This document shows positions 1 through 8,294 of a stretch of DNA of 32,000 nucleotides, one piece after another. The stretch covers positions 3,180,001-3,212,000 of the forward strand of contig NC_011979.1 in assembly GCF_000022265.1 (NCBI RefSeq), in the 5' to 3' direction. Every line of letters begins with the position of its first letter. The stretch's first letter is position 1. The notes beneath the pieces are model-generated. The model ran no database searches and was not told the DNA's origin. It saw only the letters and a list, made by a program, of their open reading frames with translations. This DNA is from Geotalea daltonii FRC-32. Its GTDB lineage: Bacteria > Desulfobacterota > Desulfuromonadia > Geobacterales > Geobacteraceae. The position numbers and the translations under genes are program-made.

Positions 1-413
1 CGGTATTCACCGGCATAGTCGAAATTCAGATCGCCGTAATAATCTTTGTCGTTAAGATAGTTACCGTCCAGGGTAAATTTAAGGTCCTGCCCCAGCCTGT
101 TGTAACTGGCACCGCCAATAATACCTGAATGCAGATAATTGTATTTGGAAGCGCGTCCGCCATAGTTGTCGATGGTCAGAAATCTGTATCCGGTGTATCC
201 CTCCAGCAAAGAATGGGTCTCTGCAGCTTTTGCAGGAAATGCCTCTTGCAGCAGGGCTTCATCCAGCTCCGATAATTCGGAGCCGTCAGCAAGGTGGTTT
301 TCTGTCTCGGTCGAAGTATCTGGTTTCTCCGAAGCCAAAGCATTGATAACCGAGAGATTAAACACAACTAATGCTGCCGCAAGCAAACAGGTCAATCTTA
401 AGAGCTTTATCAC
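1..413 (-). CDS. Outer-membrane beta-barrel protein, N-terminal 137 codons only (runs off the window edge). Candidate MtrB/PioB-type partner of the adjacent decaheme cytochrome.
   Basis: Absent from the ORF track because it is open at the window edge. Hand translation of the minus strand starts at GTG 413, with AAGGAG 7 nt upstream. It reads VIKLLRLTCLLAAALVVFNLSVINALASEKPD...LEGYTGYRFLTIDNYGGRASKYNYLHSGIIGGASYNRLGQDLKFTLDGNYLNDKDYYGDLNFDYAGEY, with no stop through position 1. A signal peptide is followed by G/Y/N/D-rich alternating segments typical of barrel strands. It lies 35 nt downstream of the MtrA-like gene. Confidence 0.5.
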   Translation of the reverse strand, partial: MIKLLRLTCLLAAALVVFNLSVINALASEKPDTSTETENHLADGSELSELDEALLQEAFPAKAAETHSLLEGYTGYRFLTIDNYGGRASKYNYLHSGIIGGASYNRLGQDLKFTLDGNYLNDKDYYGDLNFDYAGEY

Positions 414-448
414 CAGCAATCTCCTTCTGCGCAAACGGAACGGTTTTT

Positions 449-1444
449 TTACTGACGCATTGTGCCCAGGCCGGTTACACCAGTTGACGGAATATCACTT
501 CCATGAATCTGTGAATGGCAATCCGTGCAGCGATTGGAAAAGAGCTGTTTTGTTCCAGTGGTTCCGGCCATATGACCTGCATGGCACTGCAGGCAAAGAA
601 ATGGCATCGTTGTATTCAGAAGCTGGTTGTTGGTTGACCCGTGGGGGGAATGGCAATTGGTGCAATTCTCAGTGACATCGCCATGCTCGAAGACGAAGGG
701 ACCCTGTTTCTCCATGTGGCATTTCGTGCATGTTTCCTTTGGAGTATCGCCTTTAAGGAGGCTTTCCTGTGTGGACCCGTGGACATCATGACAGTCGGCA
801 CAGGCCATCTTTTTCTCCACCAGGGGGTGATGTGAATACAAGTTGTTTTCAATTCTTACCTGTGGATGGCAGCCATAGCATAACTCAGCCATCTCTTCAT
901 GCTTGACTTTCTGCTGTGGCCCCTGATGCAGCTTATGGCAATCAAGGCAACTCACGTCACTCAATGCGTGGGCACTGGCATTCCAGTGGGCCAGGGTCGG
1001 GATGGAAGCTGCGGAATGGCATTTAAGGCAGATAAGTGACTGGGCCTGGGCGGGGAGGTTCAGAATATCGAGGAATGTCTTGGAATCGCATTTTGTTTTC
1101 CTGGCGTCGTTCAATTCAGGGTCTTCAGGAAGGTCCATTATGGCAAGGCTTCCCGGACCATGGCAAGATTCGCAGTTGACCAGCGGCAGTCCTGTTCCCG
1201 GTTTTATCTGCTCACCATGGACGCTGTGCCGGAAATCGTCGGTTATCTTGTCATGGGCATGGCATTTGGCAACGCAATTGTCGGTTCCCACATAATCCGC
1301 ATCAAACCTGCCGACGATCATTCTTTCATAGTCAGAAACCGGCAGAAGCGGTTTTGTCTGCTTCAGCTGGGAACAGGCTGCCGACAGCACAGCAACAGCC
1401 ACGGCAATGAAAACACGGCACAGCATTCCCCTGTTGACTGTCAT
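449..1444 (-). CDS. Decaheme c-type cytochrome, MtrA/DmsE/MtoA/PioA-like
   Basis: 331 aa with ten CXXCH motifs: CVAKCH, CESCH, CLKCH, CLDCH, CYGCH, CADCH, CTKCH, CTNCH, CLQCH, CTDCH. N-terminal signal peptide MLCRVFIAVAVAVLSAAC. Size and heme count match periplasmic MtrA-type decahemes. Confidence 0.85.
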   Translation of the reverse strand: MTVNRGMLCRVFIAVAVAVLSAACSQLKQTKPLLPVSDYERMIVGRFDADYVGTDNCVAKCHAHDKITDDFRHSVHGEQIKPGTGLPLVNCESCHGPGSLAIMDLPEDPELNDARKTKCDSKTFLDILNLPAQAQSLICLKCHSAASIPTLAHWNASAHALSDVSCLDCHKLHQGPQQKVKHEEMAELCYGCHPQVRIENNLYSHHPLVEKKMACADCHDVHGSTQESLLKGDTPKETCTKCHMEKQGPFVFEHGDVTENCTNCHSPHGSTNNQLLNTTMPFLCLQCHAGHMAGTTGTKQLFSNRCTDCHSQIHGSDIPSTGVTGLGTMRQ

Positions 1445-2287
1445 CTAATCCCCTCGTATTCCCTTTGTTGTCGTGTAGATGAAACCCTTTACGATCGGAT
1501 TCTCGCTCTTTTTGATCTGTGCCGGAGAGCCTACCTCGATAATCTTGCCTCCATGCATCATGGCAATACGGTCTGAAATGTAGAGTGCAAAATTCAAATC
1601 ATGGGTGACTATAACGGTCGTATTTTTAGTAGTTTCCTTGAGTTTCAAAATAGTATTGGCAAGCTCGTCCGTAGTTACCGGGTCCAGCTCTGCAGTGGGC
1701 TCGTCATAAAGTATCAGATCAGGGTTCATGGCCAGGGAACGGGCAATGGCAACCCTTTTTTTCATCCCCCCCGAAAGTTCGGAGGTCCTCAAATTTTCCG
1801 TGTCCTGCAGGCCTACCTTTTCCAGTTTTTCAGTTATGATCTGCCTGATCCTCACTTCCTTGCAGATGCGCTTTTCGCGCAACCAAAGACCGACGTTTTC
1901 GCCAACTGTCAGTGAATTAAAGAGCGCAGAAGACTGAAAGACCATGCTGTAGCGGTAGTCTCTGATGGAGTTGTTTTTAATCCTGTTGAAAATGGGATTG
2001 CCGTCAATATAGATCTCACCGCTGTCCGGTGTTTCAAGCTTGACCACATGTTTCAATAAAACACTTTTCCCGGTACCGGACGGACCGATTATACTGAAAG
2101 TTTCACCGGCCTTTATCTCCAGATCGATATCCTGTAGAACATGCTTTTCACCAAAATACTTGTTCAGTTTGTCGATCCTGATGTCTACACCACGGGTATC
2201 ATTAAGGTTGACATTGCATTCCATCTCATTGTCAAAGATGGAACCGGTGAGGCCATGCTTTATTTTTTCAAACACAGAAGCTCCCAT
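1445..2287 (-). CDS. ABC transporter ATP-binding protein, MlaF/Ttg2A-like; no cognate permease adjacent
   Basis: Walker A GPSGTGKS, signature LSGGMKKR, Walker B LILYDEPT, H-loop VTHD. Single ATPase domain with an N-terminal extension of about 35 aa. Its stop codon directly abuts the ATG of the cytochrome gene. Confidence 0.9.
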   Translation of the reverse strand: MGASVFEKIKHGLTGSIFDNEMECNVNLNDTRGVDIRIDKLNKYFGEKHVLQDIDLEIKAGETFSIIGPSGTGKSVLLKHVVKLETPDSGEIYIDGNPIFNRIKNNSIRDYRYSMVFQSSALFNSLTVGENVGLWLREKRICKEVRIRQIITEKLEKVGLQDTENLRTSELSGGMKKRVAIARSLAMNPDLILYDEPTAELDPVTTDELANTILKLKETTKNTTVIVTHDLNFALYISDRIAMMHGGKIIEVGSPAQIKKSENPIVKGFIYTTTKGIRGD

Positions 2288-2297
2288 GGGACTAAAC

Positions 2298-2798
2298 TTA
2301 AAACAGATATTTATGTCTGTTGGTAAAATAATGCTTGTGGCGGTAGATAAACTGGGTCAGAAGAAGAATGGCCAAAGAAGCGGCAATATTATTAGTCCAC
2401 AATGACTCCAGCTGAATCCTGGAACCGATTAGCTTTTCAACCTCCTGGGGCTTTATGAATGTGAGGTTGATTATGGTGTTGACTACCTGGAACAGGTTGT
2501 AAAGAATCAGCATGTACCACGTAAGCAATTGACGCTTCATCGTTCCAAGAAAAAGGTACAGACACATCAGACAGTCGATGAAAACCATCATTTTGGCCGA
2601 AGAATCTGTATAGATATCGCCTAAGAACGGATAAGGATTGCCGAAGGTTGAAACAGAAACCAGGAAAAAAAAGAAATAGAGCCCGGTCAGTAGTGTCAAT
2701 CCCAAAGGGCGGCGCAATTCTTCGCTGTCTACCATCAAAATATCCTTTAAGGGTGAACTCCGGTGCTGTCTGTCATGCCTGATGTTACAACGGTGCAT
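2298..2798 (-). CDS. Hypothetical integral membrane protein (about 4 TM helices)
   Basis: 166-aa ORF with four hydrophobic segments: LGLTLLTGLYFFFFLVSV, MMVFIDCLMCLYLFLG, LLTWYMLILYNLFQVV, IAASLAILLLTQFIY. No family recognised. The start is ATG 2798 or ATG 2735. Confidence 0.6.
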   Translation of the reverse strand: MHRCNIRHDRQHRSSPLKDILMVDSEELRRPLGLTLLTGLYFFFFLVSVSTFGNPYPFLGDIYTDSSAKMMVFIDCLMCLYLFLGTMKRQLLTWYMLILYNLFQVVNTIINLTFIKPQEVEKLIGSRIQLESLWTNNIAASLAILLLTQFIYRHKHYFTNRHKYLF

Positions 2799-2799
2799 T

Positions 2800-2901
2800 T
2801 CACTTGTTTTTCCTGTTCATATCGCTGATGGCCACACAAGCGAATATTGTAACCATTACCAGGGCTATGAACAGCCAGTCTCCCGAGCTAAATCCGAACA
2901 T
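2800..2901 (-). CDS. Small single-pass membrane peptide, 33 aa, below the ORF-track cutoff
   Basis: Hand translation gives MFGFSSGDWLFIALVMVTIFACVAISDMNRKNK. AGGAG lies 5 nt upstream of the ATG and overlaps the stop of the TPR gene. The peptide's own stop is 1 nt from the next ATG. It has a hydrophobic core and a basic C-terminus. Confidence 0.4.
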   Translation of the reverse strand: MFGFSSGDWLFIALVMVTIFACVAISDMNRKNK

Positions 2902-2908
2902 AAATCTC

Positions 2909-3871
2909 CTAATACAGCTGATCTAATGCAGCACGGGCCTCGTCATAGGCCGGATTAATTGCGAGCGCTTCCTGCAGATATTCTTCCGCATATTTGGGCA
3001 TTGCCATGTTCTTACAGCACAACGCCAGGTAGTAATATAATTCCGGCAAGGGAAACTGCTGGCAGAAAGCAGCATCATCGATAATATCCTGGTAAATGGC
3101 CGCCGATTCTTCATATTGGCCTGCCTCAAAGAGAGACATGGCCACCGCCACGGCTTCAAGGTAATCAACTACCGGTATGCGCGGGAATTCGCCCGCCTCG
3201 ATCTTTTTGAGGCGTGCCTCCAGCTTTTCAGCCTCAACTTTGTCGAGCTCCGAAATGATCCCGCTCCAGCAGGACAATGCCTTATCATACTTCCCAAGCA
3301 GATAATAGACCTCGCCCAAGGTATTTTGTGCAGGCATATGCTTAGGATCAAACTGACGTGCCTTTTCGAGAAAATCCACTGCACGGTAGAGGGAAATTGT
3401 CGAAAGATGCAAGGCGGAAAGTCTCATCCCTTTGTCCAGCAAAGTCTTGCCGATCTCGAAGGGAAACTGCGCATTTTCCGGCTCAATCAAGGCAAATATC
3501 TTCAGATAATTTATTTTTCTGTCCAGGTATGTGACTTCCACATCTTTTTGATCCAGCATGACAATGTGGCTTGCCAGTTCGGAAAGGTAGTGGGGATAGG
3601 CTTGCTGCAACAGGTTTGCATAATTGCTGCTGCCAACGGCATCCGGGTTAGCCCGCAAAAGTTGGTATATGCCCCTCCCCACTGCGTCATAACCGGGTGA
3701 AGAAGCGCCAAGGGCAGAGTGATCCTCTGCGAGTAGCGGAATGGGCATACTGCCAATGGGAATATGAATCTTGCCATCAAGTCCGTCAAGGATGGCGTCT
3801 GCCGAAGGTTCATAATAAACTATTCCTGTAACGGGTGTCATATCGGTGATGGTTAAGCGTCTGATGGTCAT
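2909..3871 (-). CDS. TPR-repeat protein
   Basis: 320 aa. The C-terminal half has TPR-like helix pairs: AQNTLGEVYYLLGKYDKALSCW, LFEAGQYEESAAIYQDII, YYYLALCCKNMAMPKYAEEYLQEALAINPAYDEA. The N-terminal 150 aa or so are unassigned. The start overlaps the upstream stop as ATGA. Confidence 0.8.
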   Translation of the reverse strand: MTIRRLTITDMTPVTGIVYYEPSADAILDGLDGKIHIPIGSMPIPLLAEDHSALGASSPGYDAVGRGIYQLLRANPDAVGSSNYANLLQQAYPHYLSELASHIVMLDQKDVEVTYLDRKINYLKIFALIEPENAQFPFEIGKTLLDKGMRLSALHLSTISLYRAVDFLEKARQFDPKHMPAQNTLGEVYYLLGKYDKALSCWSGIISELDKVEAEKLEARLKKIEAGEFPRIPVVDYLEAVAVAMSLFEAGQYEESAAIYQDIIDDAAFCQQFPLPELYYYLALCCKNMAMPKYAEEYLQEALAINPAYDEARAALDQLY

Positions 3872-4710
3872 TTCTCCAGTCTGTCCCCATCGGGAAAGGT
3901 ATTGACGCCGGCTGAGCGGCCAATCATCTTGTATATTTTCACATCATCCCACGGCTCATCCATAATACCGTCATGGATGGACCAGCTGCGGCCAAAGGCT
4001 GTTGCCGCCATTTCCGGACGGCGAAAGGGATTCGAGTTATCAAGCCTTGCATACAACATGCCCCCCGGCTTGAATCCTTCGTTTATATCCTGCATTAATC
4101 GCTTGCCCGTAATATAATCGAATCCGTATTTTTCATAACGCAGGGCATTGTCATAGGTCAACGGCTCGGCCACGATCATTTCCATCCCCAAACCATCCAC
4201 AAACAACTCCAGAAGAGTGAAAACTTCCCGGAACATCCTCAGGCCACGATGGGTCTGGTTGGGGAAAAGACCGGCCTCCATGGCCCTGATTTCCTCCGGG
4301 ATGTTCCTGCCGGTGCTGGCAAAGCAGTTGTCTTCGCCCGATTCGTCCTTGTCCACATTATAACGTGGTGCGGACAGGTCGTTGATGATGCAGAAGGATA
4401 GTTCCATCTGCCGGTATTGGGTGTCTGCCAGTTCAAGAAAAAAGACCCGTTCCTTGTCGGCAGAACTAATTCTGGCTTCAATTCGCATGAGGCCCAAGCC
4501 GCGAGGTGCTATAAATTCGATTTTTGCATTTCCCTCTGCTTCGCCAAAGGTTCCCGGCCTGATCCCAAGCACATGATAAAGCCGGTCAGGAATGAGCCTT
4601 GAATATATTCTTTTTTTCTCCACGGCATCAAGAAAACTGATGTCTCTCAGGGAAAAGAGAGCATTCCCTCTTAAATCGGTCAGCTGCTCATTTCCCGGAA
4701 GTTTGGCCAT
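3868..4710 (-). CDS. Hypothetical protein with a divergent GNAT-like (acyl-CoA N-acyltransferase) C-terminal core
   Basis: 280 aa. The segment LFPNQTHRGLRMFREVFTLLELFVDGLGMEMIVAEPLTYDNALRYEKYGFDY fits the GNAT motif A/B pattern, including the N-x-x-A-x-x-x-Y-E-K-x-G-F signature. The Q/RxxGxG/A loop is degenerate (HRGLRM). It overlaps the deacetylase gene by 23 nt. Confidence 0.65.
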   Translation of the reverse strand: MAKLPGNEQLTDLRGNALFSLRDISFLDAVEKKRIYSRLIPDRLYHVLGIRPGTFGEAEGNAKIEFIAPRGLGLMRIEARISSADKERVFFLELADTQYRQMELSFCIINDLSAPRYNVDKDESGEDNCFASTGRNIPEEIRAMEAGLFPNQTHRGLRMFREVFTLLELFVDGLGMEMIVAEPLTYDNALRYEKYGFDYITGKRLMQDINEGFKPGGMLYARLDNSNPFRRPEMAATAFGRSWSIHDGIMDEPWDDVKIYKMIGRSAGVNTFPDGDRLEK

Positions 4711-5845
4711 ATGGTCCGATAATCACAGGAAAAATGGATTTTCTTACTTTGGCAATGGTCCTTTCAACAGCATCCAATGCCCGATTGCGGTCATCATCTT
4801 CCGCCCAGTGCATTGCATCCAGAAGCATCCTGTGCGGGAACCCCATCTGCCTGATCATTTCCACGAAGGGCCCCGGCAGAGATGGAGCCAGGTCCTTGCC
4901 GTTCATCACCGCCCAGACAATTGTCCAGGCCCGTGCCACGTTCATGTTGTCGTATCCCCCTCCCCCCACCGCCAACCAGGGAATTTGCAGTGCCTTTAAT
5001 TTTTTGACAATGTACGAGTAGGCGTGGGTGGTTATCTCCAGCTTTGTCAAGGGATCGGTGCGAAAGGTATCGGCTCCCATCTGGGTTACCAGCACATCCG
5101 GGTCAAATGCAGCGATCAAAGGGAATGCAACCTCATCAAAGGCCTTCATGTAGATGGCATCGTCGGTATGTTCCAGAAGTGGCACATTGACTGTATATCC
5201 GGTGCCTGCCCCTGTACCGATCTCTTCTTCAAAACCGGTACCAGGAAAAAAATAAATCCCGCTCTGGTGAAGGGAGATTGTCAGCACCTGATCATTTTCG
5301 TAAAAAGCCTCCTGAACCCCATCTCCATGATGGGCATCCAGGTCCAGGTAAACCACCCTCTTCCCTTGGGCAAGGAGGTAGTTGATGGCAACGGCAGCGT
5401 CATTCAGGTAGGAAAAACCCGAAGCCTTGCTGCGGTGCGCATGATGCCAACCACCGGCAAGATTGAATGCAGCCTTGTAACCTTCCTCGACGATCAGCCG
5501 GGCGCCTTCCAGTGTGCCTGCCGTTCCCATGCAGGCCCAATCATACACACCTTTAAAGATCGGGTTTTCAGTATCACCAAGGCCGAAACGGAAATCGGCC
5601 CTGGACTCTTCAGCGGCACTGAATTCCTTCAACCTGGCCAGATAATCATGGGAATGGAAGGTCAGCAACTGTTCATCGGTAATGGTGCCACAACGGCATA
5701 CGCTGACGTCGGGAAGGCATGTAAGTCCATAGGCATGAATAAGCTCGTAGGCTAGCTTATACCGCTGGACTTTGAATGGATGATCAGTCCCATAACAGTA
5801 GGAGCCACAGTCCGGCGAATAGATCAGGGCGGTTCTGGCGGTCAA
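4688..5845 (-). CDS. Histone deacetylase-family (AcuC / class I HDAC-like) zinc deacetylase
   Basis: Catalytic and zinc motifs GGWHHA, DLDAHHGDG and GGGGYD are present. The ORF track extends to a TTG at 5926. I prefer TTG 5845, giving (M)TARTALIYSPD, because GGAGA lies 5 nt upstream and a promoter-like element sits inside the 5846-5926 extension. Confidence 0.88.
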   Translation of the reverse strand: MTARTALIYSPDCGSYCYGTDHPFKVQRYKLAYELIHAYGLTCLPDVSVCRCGTITDEQLLTFHSHDYLARLKEFSAAEESRADFRFGLGDTENPIFKGVYDWACMGTAGTLEGARLIVEEGYKAAFNLAGGWHHAHRSKASGFSYLNDAAVAINYLLAQGKRVVYLDLDAHHGDGVQEAFYENDQVLTISLHQSGIYFFPGTGFEEEIGTGAGTGYTVNVPLLEHTDDAIYMKAFDEVAFPLIAAFDPDVLVTQMGADTFRTDPLTKLEITTHAYSYIVKKLKALQIPWLAVGGGGYDNMNVARAWTIVWAVMNGKDLAPSLPGPFVEMIRQMGFPHRMLLDAMHWAEDDDRNRALDAVERTIAKVRKSIFPVIIGPYGQTSGK

Positions 5846-5894
5846 AGGTCTCTCCGGCTGTCGCCACAGTGGCGAACTATCGTGAATTGTTGAG

Positions 5895-5923
5895 AATTTA
5901 CAATGTAAGCTTTTAAGCGTCAA
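5895..5923 (-). promoter_or_regulatory. Sigma-70-like promoter for the deacetylase-to-cytochrome gene string
   Basis: Minus strand reads TTGACG (5923-5918), then 17 nt, then TAAATT (5900-5895). This is about 50 nt upstream of the TTG 5845 start. Confidence 0.35.
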
Positions 5924-6043
5924 CAACTATTTCCGCTCCCGCAGTCATGTTTTTAGGCACTGGGGATGAATTTTTGAGCACTTGGCAGATAAAAAAGAAA
6001 GCTACTGAAAGTTTATCCCTGTAATTTCAGTTACCTGCACAAT

Positions 6044-6119: not shown

Positions 6120-7340
6120 ATGGAAGCAATGCCAACGCCGGCAAATCTACACAGCAGTTCCGACGTCCTTTTCCTCATGCTTGGTGCCGTCATGGTCTTC
6201 GCCATGCATGCCGGTTTCGCCTTTCTCGAAGTGGGCACTGTTCGCAAGAAAAACCAGGTAAATGCCTTCGTCAAAATCATTACCGACTGGTCGGTCTCAA
6301 CCATTGTCTATTTCCTCATCGGTTTTCCCATTGCATACGGCATTTCCTTTCTGGTGCCAGCCACCGATCTCCTTGGCGCCAATCAGGGATACGATCTTAC
6401 CCATTTCTTTTTTCTGCTCTGCTTCTCTGCCTGCATTCCGGCAATCATCTCCGGAGGTATAGCGGAACGGGCGAAGTTTTGGCCTCAGGTGCTGGCCGGC
6501 GCAATTTTTGCCGGGTTGACCTATCCCATCTTCGAGTCCCTGATCTGGGGGCAGAATTCTGCACCGCTACAGAGTTTTTTCAAGACCTACGGGGGAGCCG
6601 AATTTCATGATTATGCGGGCTCGGTTGTAGTCCATTCCATTGGCGGTTGGCTCGCCCTGCCGGCAGTGATCATCCTTGGACCCCGAATGGGACGCTATCT
6701 TCGGGGCAAATCGCATCCGATTCCAATAAGCAATATACCCTTCCTTGCACTGGGTTCCTGGATACTTGCCGTAGGCTGGTTCGGCTTCAATGTCATGAGC
6801 GCCGGACACCTGGAGAAGATATCCGGACTGGTTGCGGTAAATTCATTGATGGCCATGGTCGGCGGCATTCTAGCGGCACTTGTAGCAGGCAAAAACGACC
6901 CCGGCTTCGTCCACAACGGCGCTTTGGCCGGCCTGATTGCCGTTTGTGCAGGGAGCGATATCATGCATCCTCTGGCGGCATTCATCACCGGATGCATCGC
7001 TTCCATTATCTTTGTCTACGGTTTTCATCTGGAACAGGAAAAACTGAAGATCGACGATGTGCTTGGCGTCTGGCCTCTCCATGGGGTGATTGGTTCCTGG
7101 GGAGGAATCGCTACCGGGATCTTCGGTCACAAATTTTTCGGGGGCATGGGGGGAGTCACCTTCATGTCACAACTTATGGGATCGGTGCTGGCAATTGCCT
7201 TTGCCCTTGTCAGCAGTCTGATTGTCTATGGCTGCCTTTCCAAAACCATCGGCGTCAGGCTGGATGAAGAACAGGAATTTGCCGGAGCCGATTTGAGCAT
7301 CCATAGTATCGGTGCATATCCGGAAGATCATGTCCGGTAA
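6120..7340 (+). CDS. amtB: Ammonium transporter (Amt family)
   Basis: 406-aa polytopic protein. Amt signatures: DYAGSVVVHSIGGW (first pore His) and LGVWPLHGVIGSWGG (second pore His). GGAGG lies 6 nt upstream of the ATG. Confidence 0.95.
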   Translation: MEAMPTPANLHSSSDVLFLMLGAVMVFAMHAGFAFLEVGTVRKKNQVNAFVKIITDWSVSTIVYFLIGFPIAYGISFLVPATDLLGANQGYDLTHFFFLLCFSACIPAIISGGIAERAKFWPQVLAGAIFAGLTYPIFESLIWGQNSAPLQSFFKTYGGAEFHDYAGSVVVHSIGGWLALPAVIILGPRMGRYLRGKSHPIPISNIPFLALGSWILAVGWFGFNVMSAGHLEKISGLVAVNSLMAMVGGILAALVAGKNDPGFVHNGALAGLIAVCAGSDIMHPLAAFITGCIASIIFVYGFHLEQEKLKIDDVLGVWPLHGVIGSWGGIATGIFGHKFFGGMGGVTFMSQLMGSVLAIAFALVSSLIVYGCLSKTIGVRLDEEQEFAGADLSIHSIGAYPEDHVR

Positions 7341-7366: not shown

Positions 7367-7392
7367 AAGGCCCTGAAACGGGCCTTTTTTTT
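7367..7392 (+). terminator. Rho-independent terminator after amt
   Basis: Stem AAGGCCC (7367-7373), loop TGAAAC, stem GGGCCTT (7380-7386), followed by a T-run. Confidence 0.75.
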
Positions 7393-7469
7393 ATTTTTAG
7401 TATATAATTCCCCGGAAACTGTCGATAAAGCGGTTGTAGGCAAATCAATGAGGAACGGGACAATCAACT

Positions 7470-8294
7470 ATGAAAAAACAGCTGGGAGATTTATTGGTAG
7501 AAGCCGGAATCATCACCAATACTACCCTGGAAAGGGCTCTGCAAAGACAAAAAGGAACAAACAAACGTCTGGGAACAGTGCTTGAGGAAATGGGGGTGGT
7601 CACTGGTGATGAACTGGTCACTGCCGTTGCCGGACAGTTCGGCCTGAAAACGGTCAAAAATGTTGCAGCTTTTTCCTATCCCCAAGCATTGCTTGATCTT
7701 ATCCCTGAAGATATGGCCCTGCAGAAACTGATTTTTCCGTTGAAACAAAAGGAAGGGCTTCTTGCCATTGCCATCGCTGATCCTTTTGATACCGATTCAC
7801 AAGATTATCTGGCAAAGAAAACAAGCTGTAAAGTCATACCGGTACTGGCCACGCCGGAAGACATCATGGCTGCCGTGAAGAAGTTCTATCTGAAGGGAGC
7901 TGCAAAATCCGACAGAACGATGGTCTTGGTGGTCGATGATTCAAAATCCGTGGCAACAATAATCCAGGTGGCTCTTGAGAAGGAGGGATACCAGGTGGTT
8001 GTGGCCAGTGATGGGGTGGAAGGCCTGAAGCTGGCTATTCAACATAAACCGACGCTGGTGATTTGCGACTCGGTAATGCCCCGCATGGATGGATTTGCTT
8101 TCAAGCGTGCTTTGAAAGCAAATCCCGACACCGCCGATATCCCGGTAATTCTTCTGACTTCCAAGGCCTCACCCGAAGAGGAGCATGCCGCATTGACATC
8201 GGGTTTCCTCGATTTCATTGCCAAACCTGTCATGCCCATGCGGGTGATTTCCCGCGTCAACAGAGCCATGGAATTGATAAAGCACATAAAATAA
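7470..8294 (+). CDS. Response regulator: N-terminal T2SSE_N/MshEN-type domain fused to a CheY-like receiver
   Basis: Residues 1-150 look like a GspE/PilB N-terminal domain (LGDLLVEAGII...RLGTVLEEMGVV...LIFPL...IAIADPFD). Residues 160-274 form a canonical receiver: VVDDS, phospho-acceptor in ICDSVMPRMDG, LLTS, AKP. Confidence 0.85.
   Translation: MKKQLGDLLVEAGIITNTTLERALQRQKGTNKRLGTVLEEMGVVTGDELVTAVAGQFGLKTVKNVAAFSYPQALLDLIPEDMALQKLIFPLKQKEGLLAIAIADPFDTDSQDYLAKKTSCKVIPVLATPEDIMAAVKKFYLKGAAKSDRTMVLVVDDSKSVATIIQVALEKEGYQVVVASDGVEGLKLAIQHKPTLVICDSVMPRMDGFAFKRALKANPDTADIPVILLTSKASPEEEHAALTSGFLDFIAKPVMPMRVISRVNRAMELIKHIK

Follow-up and report, generated by a model that had tools for sequence, protein, structure and literature searches.

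A porin-cytochrome locus with a set of accessory genes

In the MtrAB, PioAB and MtoAB systems of Shewanella, Rhodopseudomonas and Sideroxydans, a gene for a DmsE/MtrA-family decahaem cytochrome is directly followed by a gene for an MtrB/PioB-type outer-membrane barrel of roughly 700 aa. MtrAB-type conduits have been recognised only recently in relatives of Geobacter, which were long thought to rely on the unrelated Pcc/Omc systems. Here we describe a gene cluster at the left end of a 32,000-nt stretch of Geotalea daltonii FRC-32 DNA (NC_011979.1, positions 3,180,001 to 3,212,000 of the forward strand; hereafter the window), in which such a pair is encoded together with an ATP-binding cassette (ABC) ATPase related to MlaF, a protein of the class I histone deacetylase (HDAC) family, a protein of GNAT-like fold (p280) and several smaller proteins. 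The cluster belongs to the MtrAB/PioAB-type porin-cytochrome loci and is not a new kind of system; its function we infer. The locus is ancient, vertically inherited and modular in Geobacterales/Desulfuromonadia, and the overall explanation that we prefer, with a probability of roughly 0.45, is that an acyl-CoA-linked pair of proteins is tied to an envelope module made of an Mla-derived ATPase and an MtrAB conduit.

A sequence-only reading of the window had described a string of eight minus-strand open reading frames (ORFs) between positions 1 and 5926. All eight are present at these coordinates in the ORF list, and the junctions given for them are exact when compared with ORF coordinates and junction sequences. 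The extent of the string had been underestimated: L001, a 47.6-kb metagenome contig identical to the window, supplies the sequence beyond the left edge, where the 701-aa barrel gene is completed and is followed by genes for a PF04392 protein, a CheY-like receiver and a 130-aa protein, and then by a convergent gene, so that the string comprises 11 genes over about 9.3 kb. The identities first proposed (class I deacetylase, GNAT-like fold, tetratricopeptide-repeat (TPR) protein, MlaF-like ATPase, MtrA/MtrB-like pair) agree with the family, structure and profile matches. The features are, from the upstream promoter onwards:

5895-5923, minus: candidate sigma-70-type promoter TTGACG-17-TAAATT (9/12 consensus and cross-genus conservation)
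4688-5845, minus: class I histone-deacetylase-family amidohydrolase (AcuC/HDLP-like), 385 aa; PF00850, 293.5 bits
3868-4710, minus: p280 (Geob_2917), 280 aa; predicted GNAT-fold family not covered by Pfam or NCBIfam models
2909-3871, minus: cytoplasmic TPR protein, 320 aa; TPR_2, TPR_1 and TPR_19 matches
2800-2901, minus: p33, putative 33-aa single-pass membrane microprotein; conservation and one hydrophobic segment
2298-2798, minus: membrane protein with four transmembrane segments (4-TM); 166-aa ORF, conserved protein probably of about 145 aa from 2735
1445-2287, minus: ABC ATPase assigned as an MlaF orthologue; PF00005
449-1444, minus: MtrA/DmsE-family periplasmic decahaem cytochrome; TIGR03508, 274 bits, cutoff 192.2
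1-413, minus: first 137 codons of a gene assigned as a divergent MtrB/PioB-type outer-membrane barrel; full 701-aa gene at L001:14298-16403
L001, between barrel and receiver genes: PF04392 periplasmic binding protein
L001:17399-17782: CheY-like receiver, 127 aa; PF00072, 51.8 bits
L001:17815-18207: p130, 130-aa Cys-rich protein with invariant motifs, last operon gene

The HDAC and p280 genes overlap by 23 nt and the p280 and TPR genes by 4 nt (as ATGA), and the TAG stop of the TPR gene sits in a TAGGAG found 7 nt ahead of the 33-aa ORF. The 166-aa ORF begins 1 nt after the latter and ends 10 nt before the ATPase gene, whose TAG directly abuts the cytochrome ATG (1445/1444); the barrel gene follows after 35 nt, with a GTG start and GAAGGAG ahead of it. 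On L001 the barrel gene is separated by 7 nt from the PF04392 gene, which is followed after 31 nt by the receiver gene and after a further 32 nt by the 130-aa gene.

The cytochrome scores 245 against the GSU2203-family model, below its cutoff of 325, and its residues 52-320 align to residues 62-327 of MtrA (6R2Q_A) with an E value of 8e-43. It had been called a decaheme protein and does have ten haem motifs, but only nine of them are CXXCH; the first is CX3CH (C57-VAK-C61-H, residues 57-62), at the position of the first CXXCH in MtrA. The same first motif is found in the cytochrome orthologues of loci L072 and L076, while Shewanella MtrA has CXXCH there. The G. daltonii barrel protein gave no PF11854 or TIGR03509 match at E<=0.1, and a profile of its orthologues compared with PDB sequences retrieved no MtrB chain. 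PF11854 (MtrB_PioB) is matched by 11 of 22 barrel orthologues, which are 42-73% identical (best match 1.1e-11), NCBI names the orthologues as MtrB/PioB family, and the 701-aa protein, encoded directly downstream of the mtrA-type gene, has a hydrophobic N-terminus and a C-terminal aromatic residue (...SAKW). From these features we assign the barrel to the MtrB/PioB family as a probable, divergent member.

As in the pioAB and mtoAB loci, an MtrC gene is missing from this cluster. Besides the barrel that misses both family models and the CX3CH motif, the cluster differs from MtrAB, PioAB and MtoAB in its neighbours, which are the MlaF-type ATPase, the PF04392 protein, the receiver and the deacetylase/GNAT pair, and not carriers of the CymA, MtoD or PioC type. 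It shares with the Geobacter Pcc clusters (ombB-omaB-omcB; ext) the presence of outer-membrane conduit genes with a regulator gene nearby (PMC4245776), but the families are unrelated (8-haem OmaB, 12-haem OmcB and the OmbB porin) and the listing of pcc clusters for G. daltonii does not include this one.

The sequence-only reading also knew of no described system with this combination of genes, a statement that has to be narrowed. A recent study (BMC Genomics 2024; PMC11492766) reported, as a surprise, that some Geobacterales carry genes for ABC ATP-binding and substrate-binding proteins in operons with MtrA-type and MtrB/PioB genes, and in two sentences on this association suggested metal uptake. 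The deacetylase, the GNAT-fold, TPR and 4-TM proteins, the microprotein, the receiver, the Cys-rich protein, the Mla ancestry and the modular variants are not part of that account. For the rest of the cluster we found no published description, either of the HDAC/GNAT-fold/TPR front end, microprotein, 4-TM protein, receiver and Cys-rich protein or of the descent of the ATPase from an Mla system, the variants with missing modules and the promoter loss in Geotalea. Our literature searches returned nothing on locus tags Geob_2912-2918 and only expression tables on GSU2203/2204 and OmcI, and the cluster is not described in Baker 2022, Shi 2014 or He 2017. Our analysis describes a conduit clade inherited with a fixed accessory set (Mla-type ATPase, binding protein, receiver and deacetylase/GNAT pair), whose members are testable candidates for the regulation, assembly or use of the conduit in respiration, uptake or sensing.

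Conservation, modularity and Mla ancestry

To follow the cluster across genomes, 80 loci were fetched from GTDB species-representative genomes by p280 homology and the cluster genes were mapped in them, 57 loci having enough flank. At the species level, at least 20 genomes from Geotalea, Geomonas, Citrifermentans, Geobacter and Geomobilimonas share the gene order, which was also found in metagenomes. HDAC-p280 is present in 47 of the 57 loci, accompanied by cytochrome-barrel in 23, by the ATPase in 37 and by the receiver in 44 of them. The arrangements found were:

15/57 loci: identical 11-gene order
4/57 loci: 11-gene order plus a PF13380 (CoA_binding_2) gene (Geomonas, Citrifermentans; L069 without a detectable 4-TM gene)
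2/57 loci: 11-gene order minus the last gene only
14/57 loci: HDAC-p280-(p33)-ATPase-receiver, without the conduit
7/57 loci: HDAC-p280-TPR-p33-4TM-receiver (Trichlorobacter type), without ATPase and conduit
9/57 loci: p280 paralogue alone
6/57 loci: single variants, e.g. Pelotalea without the ATPase

Two look-ups seeded with the barrel gave a full cluster in Geobacter sp. AOG1 and one cluster without HDAC-p280 (TPR-p33-CoA-binding-4TM-ATPase-cytochrome-barrel-SBP-receiver-p130, SBP being the substrate-binding protein), and a scan of metagenomes found further full copies together with a minimal HDAC-p280-p33-receiver form. These four genes are the persistent core, p33 being found in nearly all HDAC-p280 cluster variants, whereas any one of the ATPase, the TPR/4-TM pair and the conduit can be missing from a cluster. 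The TPR and 4-TM genes always co-occur in the mapped loci, apart from L069. The PF13380 CoA-binding gene is inserted in the Geomonas, Citrifermentans and L076 clusters, and also in L084, which has no HDAC-p280. The association of deacetylase, p280 and TPR genes (the trio) with the conduit, which had been expected to be absent from related genomes if it were fortuitous, recurs in the same order in dozens of independent genomes that include Desulfuromonadales outgroups, which argues against a mere packing of genes without linkage. The idea of trio and conduit as one unit survives in part, given that the full order is found in many genomes and about half of the HDAC-p280 clusters have no conduit. 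As judged from these comparisons, the linkage is real and old, but modular.

The ATPase carries intact motifs (Walker A GPSGTGKS, signature LSGGMKKR, Walker B ILYDEP and H-loop VTHD) and has its best PDB matches in 7d06_B, 6z5u_K and 6ic4_I (E 1.4e-48; labelled 'ABC transporter ATP-binding protein'), which from their entry codes we take to be the MlaFEDB complex of A. baumannii, so that the nearest solved relative would be an MlaF. Chains labelled MlaF rank lower (P. aeruginosa 7ch8_I, E 1.8e-41; E. coli 6xbd_I, E 1e-38), with amino-acid ABC transporter and ABCB1 ATPases above them. Compared with MlaFEDB systems, the protein scores far below the cutoff of the E. coli MlaF equivalog model (NF008809, 169.5 against 441 bits) and carries about 35 additional, conserved residues at its N-terminus. 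It is 67-69% identical to ATPases that are flanked by MlaE (PF02405, 253 bits) and MlaD (PF02470) in five loci, namely L068 and the Desulfuromonadales-like outgroup loci L076, L109, L128 and L159. The gene order in the latter four is HDAC-p280-TPR-(CoA-binding)-X-MlaE-ATPase-MlaD-cytochrome, and in L068 the trio is joined to the full MlaE-MlaF-MlaD set without any conduit. The barrel follows the cytochrome in L076 and L128 and the PF04392 gene was detected in L076 alone; the sequences retrieved for L109 and L159 stop inside the cytochrome gene or shortly behind it. We identify the ATPase by these comparisons as an MlaF orthologue, and it is not, as had been proposed, an orphan without permease by origin, since the outgroup versions of this cluster have its orthologue within complete MlaE-MlaF-MlaD sets. 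Unlike MlaFEDB systems, the window and the mapped Geobacteraceae loci contain no MlaE, MlaD, MlaB, MlaC or MlaA gene. The protein X is a secreted protein of about 500 aa without Pfam match, which is always encoded ahead of MlaE (L076:12349-13839, L068:4154-5788, L109, L128 and L159).

In a neighbour-joining tree of p280, which is rough (midpoint-rooted and without support values), the reduced variants nest inside lineages that have the full set and would therefore represent losses, and the outgroups carry Mla genes together with the conduit. The simplest reading is that the ancestral locus contained the trio, MlaEFD, MtrAB and the binding protein, that MlaE and MlaD were lost in Geobacteraceae and that the conduit was lost several times later.

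A proposed acyl-CoA-linked pair and competing explanations

The closest solved relatives of the deacetylase are RPD3, HDAC2, HDAC8 and the Aquifex HDLP (E 1e-64 to 1e-71), and its catalytic motifs, aligned to RPD3, are complete: the HH dyad (WHHA), D-x-H (DLDAHHGDG), D (MGAD) and the catalytic Tyr in GGGGY. Its coupled neighbour p280, 100% identical to Geob_2917, had no match in Pfam or NCBIfam, and its profile found nothing meaningful among PDB sequences. An AlphaFold2 model built from 18 close homologues was unusable (predicted local distance difference test, pLDDT, 52.7); after representatives of 35-57% identity were added, the 40-sequence alignment gave a model with a pLDDT of 93.9 and a predicted template-modelling (TM) score, pTM, of 0.90. 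Almost all of the 50 Foldseek matches listed from the PDB are GNAT enzymes or GNAT-like regulatory domains (best probability 0.98, E 7e-3; TM 0.45-0.50 normalised to the target), and the GNAT core (beta1-4, alpha3, beta5, alpha4, beta6-7) is present in the model. In terms of the predicted fold, p280 is GNAT-like, with scores that are weak because an insertion of about 50 residues interrupts the core and a C-terminal extension is added to it.

In Bacillus subtilis, a GNAT gene beside that of an AMP-forming ligase and an AcuC-type deacetylase form the AcuA/AcuC switch (acsA-acuABC), an arrangement that is the signature of AcuA/Pat-type regulators. The cluster resembles this switch and Pat/CobB in its gene arrangement, with translational coupling between an AcuC-like deacetylase gene and one for a GNAT-fold protein. 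In addition, paralogues of p280 are encoded directly upstream of an AMP-binding (AMP-forming) acyl-CoA ligase gene in some loci, such ligases being the classical target class, and other paralogues lie between a DUF6125 gene and genes for enoyl-CoA hydratase, acyl-CoA dehydrogenase and carboxyltransferase, in a liu-like cluster for acyl-CoA catabolism. An N-terminal GNAT domain (PF00583) is fused to some p280 homologues, so that the acyl-CoA theme is found in the fold, in these fusions, in a GNAT-HDAC fusion in L076, in the inserted CoA-binding gene and in the ligase and catabolic contexts. Unlike AcuA and Pat, p280 has no sequence similarity to them by Pfam or NCBIfam and is larger (280 aa, with the 50-residue insertion and the C-terminal extension), and unlike the AcuA/AcuC system the cluster has neither AcuB nor a ligase. 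Because a GNAT gene next to a ligase and an AcuC-type deacetylase are the AcuA/AcuC pattern, we favour, by analogy, a writer/eraser or acyl-CoA-sensing role of the first two gene products, which would act on the envelope module or together with it.

Several further arrangements of these genes were observed. The paralogous p280 clade without deacetylase comprises L043, L044, L059, L063 and L066, and L036, L038, L064, L071, L074 and L077. The metagenome contigs L100, L127 and L132 contain HDAC-p280 pairs of about 52% identity that are not followed by TPR and ATPase genes; FadL-like outer-membrane and Na/Pi-cotransporter-like proteins are, as candidates by eye only, encoded after them. In L076, from a metagenome-assembled genome of the Desulfuromonadales, the fusion gene (L076:2643-4499) encodes 618 aa with an N-terminal GNAT (PF00583) and a C-terminal histone-deacetylase (PF00850) domain, and the HDAC-p280 cluster begins a few kb downstream of it.

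The explanation that we prefer is as follows. The cluster consists of a cytoplasmic, putatively acyl-CoA-linked pair (a deacetylase predicted to be catalytically intact, translationally coupled to p280) with TPR, p33 and 4-TM proteins; of the MlaF-orthologous ATPase, the MtrA-type cytochrome, the MtrB/PioB-type barrel and the PF04392 binding protein; and of the CheY-like receiver and the 130-aa protein ending in CHNCGCGC. The Geobacteraceae would have lost MlaE and MlaD beside the ATPase, and in Geotalea the intergenic gaps would have collapsed together with the internal promoter, all genes being read from the promoter upstream of the deacetylase. The deacetylase and p280 could be an eraser/writer pair like AcuC/AcuA, or an acyl-CoA sensor, and this pair, with the TPR scaffold, p33 and the receiver, could tie the activity or assembly of the envelope module to acyl-CoA/acetate status. 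The conduit would most likely move electrons across the outer membrane as MtrAB and PioAB do, without an MtrC partner.

A number of observations weigh against such a coupling. The modules occur apart, as 14 clusters lack the conduit and 7 lack both ATPase and conduit, and conversely HDAC-p280 is missing beside the conduit set of L084 and the ATPase beside the conduit of L072. In most genera the ATPase gene is preceded by a promoter of its own and co-regulation is therefore not obligatory. No obvious acylation target is encoded in the cluster, and distant p280 homologues (41-46%) are found in unrelated contexts in metagenomes. The GNAT-fold match itself has low scores (best E 7e-3, with a TM of about 0.45 to the target), the conserved putative acyl-CoA loop (Q152-T-H-R-G156-L) is one residue longer than Q/R-x-x-G-x-G/A and hence non-canonical, and it is split from beta4 by the insertion of about 50 residues. 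The C-terminal domain of ICL2 is also among the structural matches, and p280 might therefore be a non-catalytic ligand-binding domain of that kind.

The same genes can be read in other ways. An envelope-spanning machine, in which the Mla-derived ATPase swapped MlaE and MlaD for p33 and the 4-TM protein and works with the PF04392 protein and MtrAB, so coupling electron transfer to ATP-driven transport or signalling, and in which p280, as an acyltransferase of a new class, and the AcuC-like deacetylase switch it by reading the acyl-CoA pool, seems unlikely to us. We regard as quite unlikely that the cluster performs redox-coupled uptake, in which MtrAB would reduce a metal or other substrate outside the cell or in the periplasm, the PF04392 protein bind the product, the 4-TM protein (perhaps with p33) and the ATPase form an unconventional ABC importer and p130 receive a metal in the cytoplasm. 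A transport or metal-uptake role was proposed for the ABC, substrate-binding and MtrA/MtrB association (PMC11492766). The full variant does have a binding protein, membrane proteins, the ATPase and p130, whose C-terminal CHNCGCGC and C82-x-G-H85 are both invariant, and polar residues are conserved within the hydrophobic segments of the 4-TM protein. CHNCGCGC resembles CXXCGC, the high-affinity Ni site of E. coli HypB. However, the ATPase is orthologous to MlaF, whose ancestral partners MlaE and MlaD are not importer permeases, and it occurs without the 4-TM protein in 14 clusters, the latter occurring without the ATPase in at least nine. Moreover, PF04392 proteins are known as binders of organic ligands rather than metals, and the only NCBIfam match of this one is to the tryptophan-binding TrpX model (145 bits, below the 390-bit cutoff). 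The p130 family search gave no link to metal systems either: a homologue profile search returned 1930 clusters, and all 120 listed are unnamed or 'hypothetical' proteins of about 130 aa, the named ones being from Geobacteraceae or Desulfuromonadales.

An envelope lipid system, which we find highly doubtful, would have an acylated small molecule or lipid formed or modified by p280 and the deacetylase and moved to or from the outer membrane by the Mla-type ATPase with MlaE and MlaD encoded elsewhere, thereby aiding the insertion or function of MtrAB. The union of trio and complete MlaE-MlaF-MlaD set without conduit in L068, the same set between trio and conduit in L076, L109, L128 and L159 and the long outgroup MlaD (362 aa, with a helical C-terminal extension) are consistent with it, as are the FadL-like candidates, picked by eye, that follow HDAC-p280 pairs of another lineage; in addition, GNAT-fold N-acyltransferases such as OlsB make aminolipids. 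Against this, MlaE and MlaD are absent from the window and from all mapped Geobacteraceae loci, the deacetylase is nearest to class I protein/polyamine deacetylases and not to lipid deacylases, the HDAC-p280-TPR-p33-4TM-receiver variant keeps the trio without the ATPase, and the cluster has no lipid-synthesis genes. It is improbable, finally, that trio and conduit are unlinked in function and neighbours merely by descent in a stable synteny (gltX, MshEN receiver, amtB, cluster), the packing in Geotalea being due to streamlining. The amtB, MshEN-receiver and gltX flanks are indeed syntenic across genera, the modules are separable and have an internal promoter in most genera, and the collapse of the gaps is confined to Geotalea. 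Nevertheless, the same association is found with different flanks in the L076, L109, L128 and L159 outgroups, the order inside the cluster is invariant while its surroundings change, the conduit clade was found only in this cluster in every look-up, including the two seeded with the barrel, and the CoA-binding gene is in the cluster where HDAC-p280 is missing.

Transcription units, small proteins and flanking genes

The spacing of the genes separates Geotalea from the other genera. Across the 16 full loci measured, the HDAC and p280 genes overlap in all 16 and the p280-TPR, TPR-p33, cytochrome-barrel and barrel-SBP gaps are short, while the median spacing is 106 nt ahead of the ATPase gene and 51 nt behind it; only in Geotalea are these gaps 5-10 nt and 0-3 nt, respectively. 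A conserved promoter of sigma-70 type with an extended -10 (TTGCnn-N14-15-TGnTAnnAT) precedes the ATPase gene in 20 of the 25 full loci from outside Geotalea, 64-93 nt ahead of its start in the loci compared (L008-L085). This motif is absent from the window, where the gap comprises positions 2288-2297. Geotalea thus appears to have fused two transcription units by deletion, the 5' end of the ATPase gene being trimmed too, and offers a clean case of such a fusion through loss of the promoter region between two genes. It is plausible that in Geotalea the conserved upstream promoter gives rise to a single transcript, and since the ATPase-upstream promoter is present elsewhere this single-operon state would be specific to it.

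The ORF of the deacetylase is open up to 5926, but its start is almost certainly TTG 5845, because a GGAGAG Shine-Dalgarno sequence precedes it and the gene call on the identical contig L001 agrees; the promoter at 5895-5923 would therefore lie about 50 nt upstream of the gene and not inside it. The sequence-only reading had proposed this promoter, and it is borne out by its conserved position, as many genera keep GTTGACG-N17-TA(A/G)A(T/G)T at 25-54 nt ahead of the deacetylase start amid diverging flanking sequence. Taken by itself its consensus score is at chance, matches at the 9/12 level being no commoner than in shuffles (11 found, 8.7 expected), and a consensus scan for internal promoters in the string likewise gave chance-level matches only. 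The string was also said to have no terminator-like hairpin, and we found none that is convincing within it, only weak stems of 5-7 bp in numbers close to chance (9 against 7.7). A search of the whole window with Rfam gave no match.

The analysis defines new families: the GNAT-fold family tied to acyl-CoA metabolism, the 33-aa membrane microprotein and the Cys-rich family. The pattern MFGFSxxDWIFIxxVxxVIFxCVAISDMRKK is kept at the same position in 57 loci, and on this conservation we consider p33 a genuine gene. The start of the 4-TM protein is most likely ATG 2735, which follows an AAGGA Shine-Dalgarno sequence, because the 21-residue N-terminal extension encoded upstream of it is unconserved even in an 81%-identical orthologue; the gap after the 33-aa gene would therefore be about 64 nt and not 1 nt. 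Orthologues of this protein were found in 40 loci (35-81% identical), and no family match was obtained in Pfam or NCBIfam. The possibility that it is a cut-down MlaE was rejected, as BLASTP against the MlaE of L076 showed no similarity. The TPR protein has no signal peptide in its sequence, the receiver has the expected residues (D8-D10, the phospho-acceptor D53, S83 and K104), and p130 matched nothing in Pfam or the PDB, nor did its profile match PDB sequences.

On the other side of the cluster, a divergently transcribed ammonium transporter gene (6120-7340) is directly followed by a strong intrinsic terminator on the plus strand (7367-7396; AAGGCCC-TGAAAC-GGGCCTT and then TTTTTTATTT). MshEN domains are c-di-GMP-binding modules, and the next gene (7470-8294, plus strand) encodes a 274-aa protein composed of an MshEN domain (PF05157) and a receiver domain; many genera have this gene in synteny with both amtB and the cluster.

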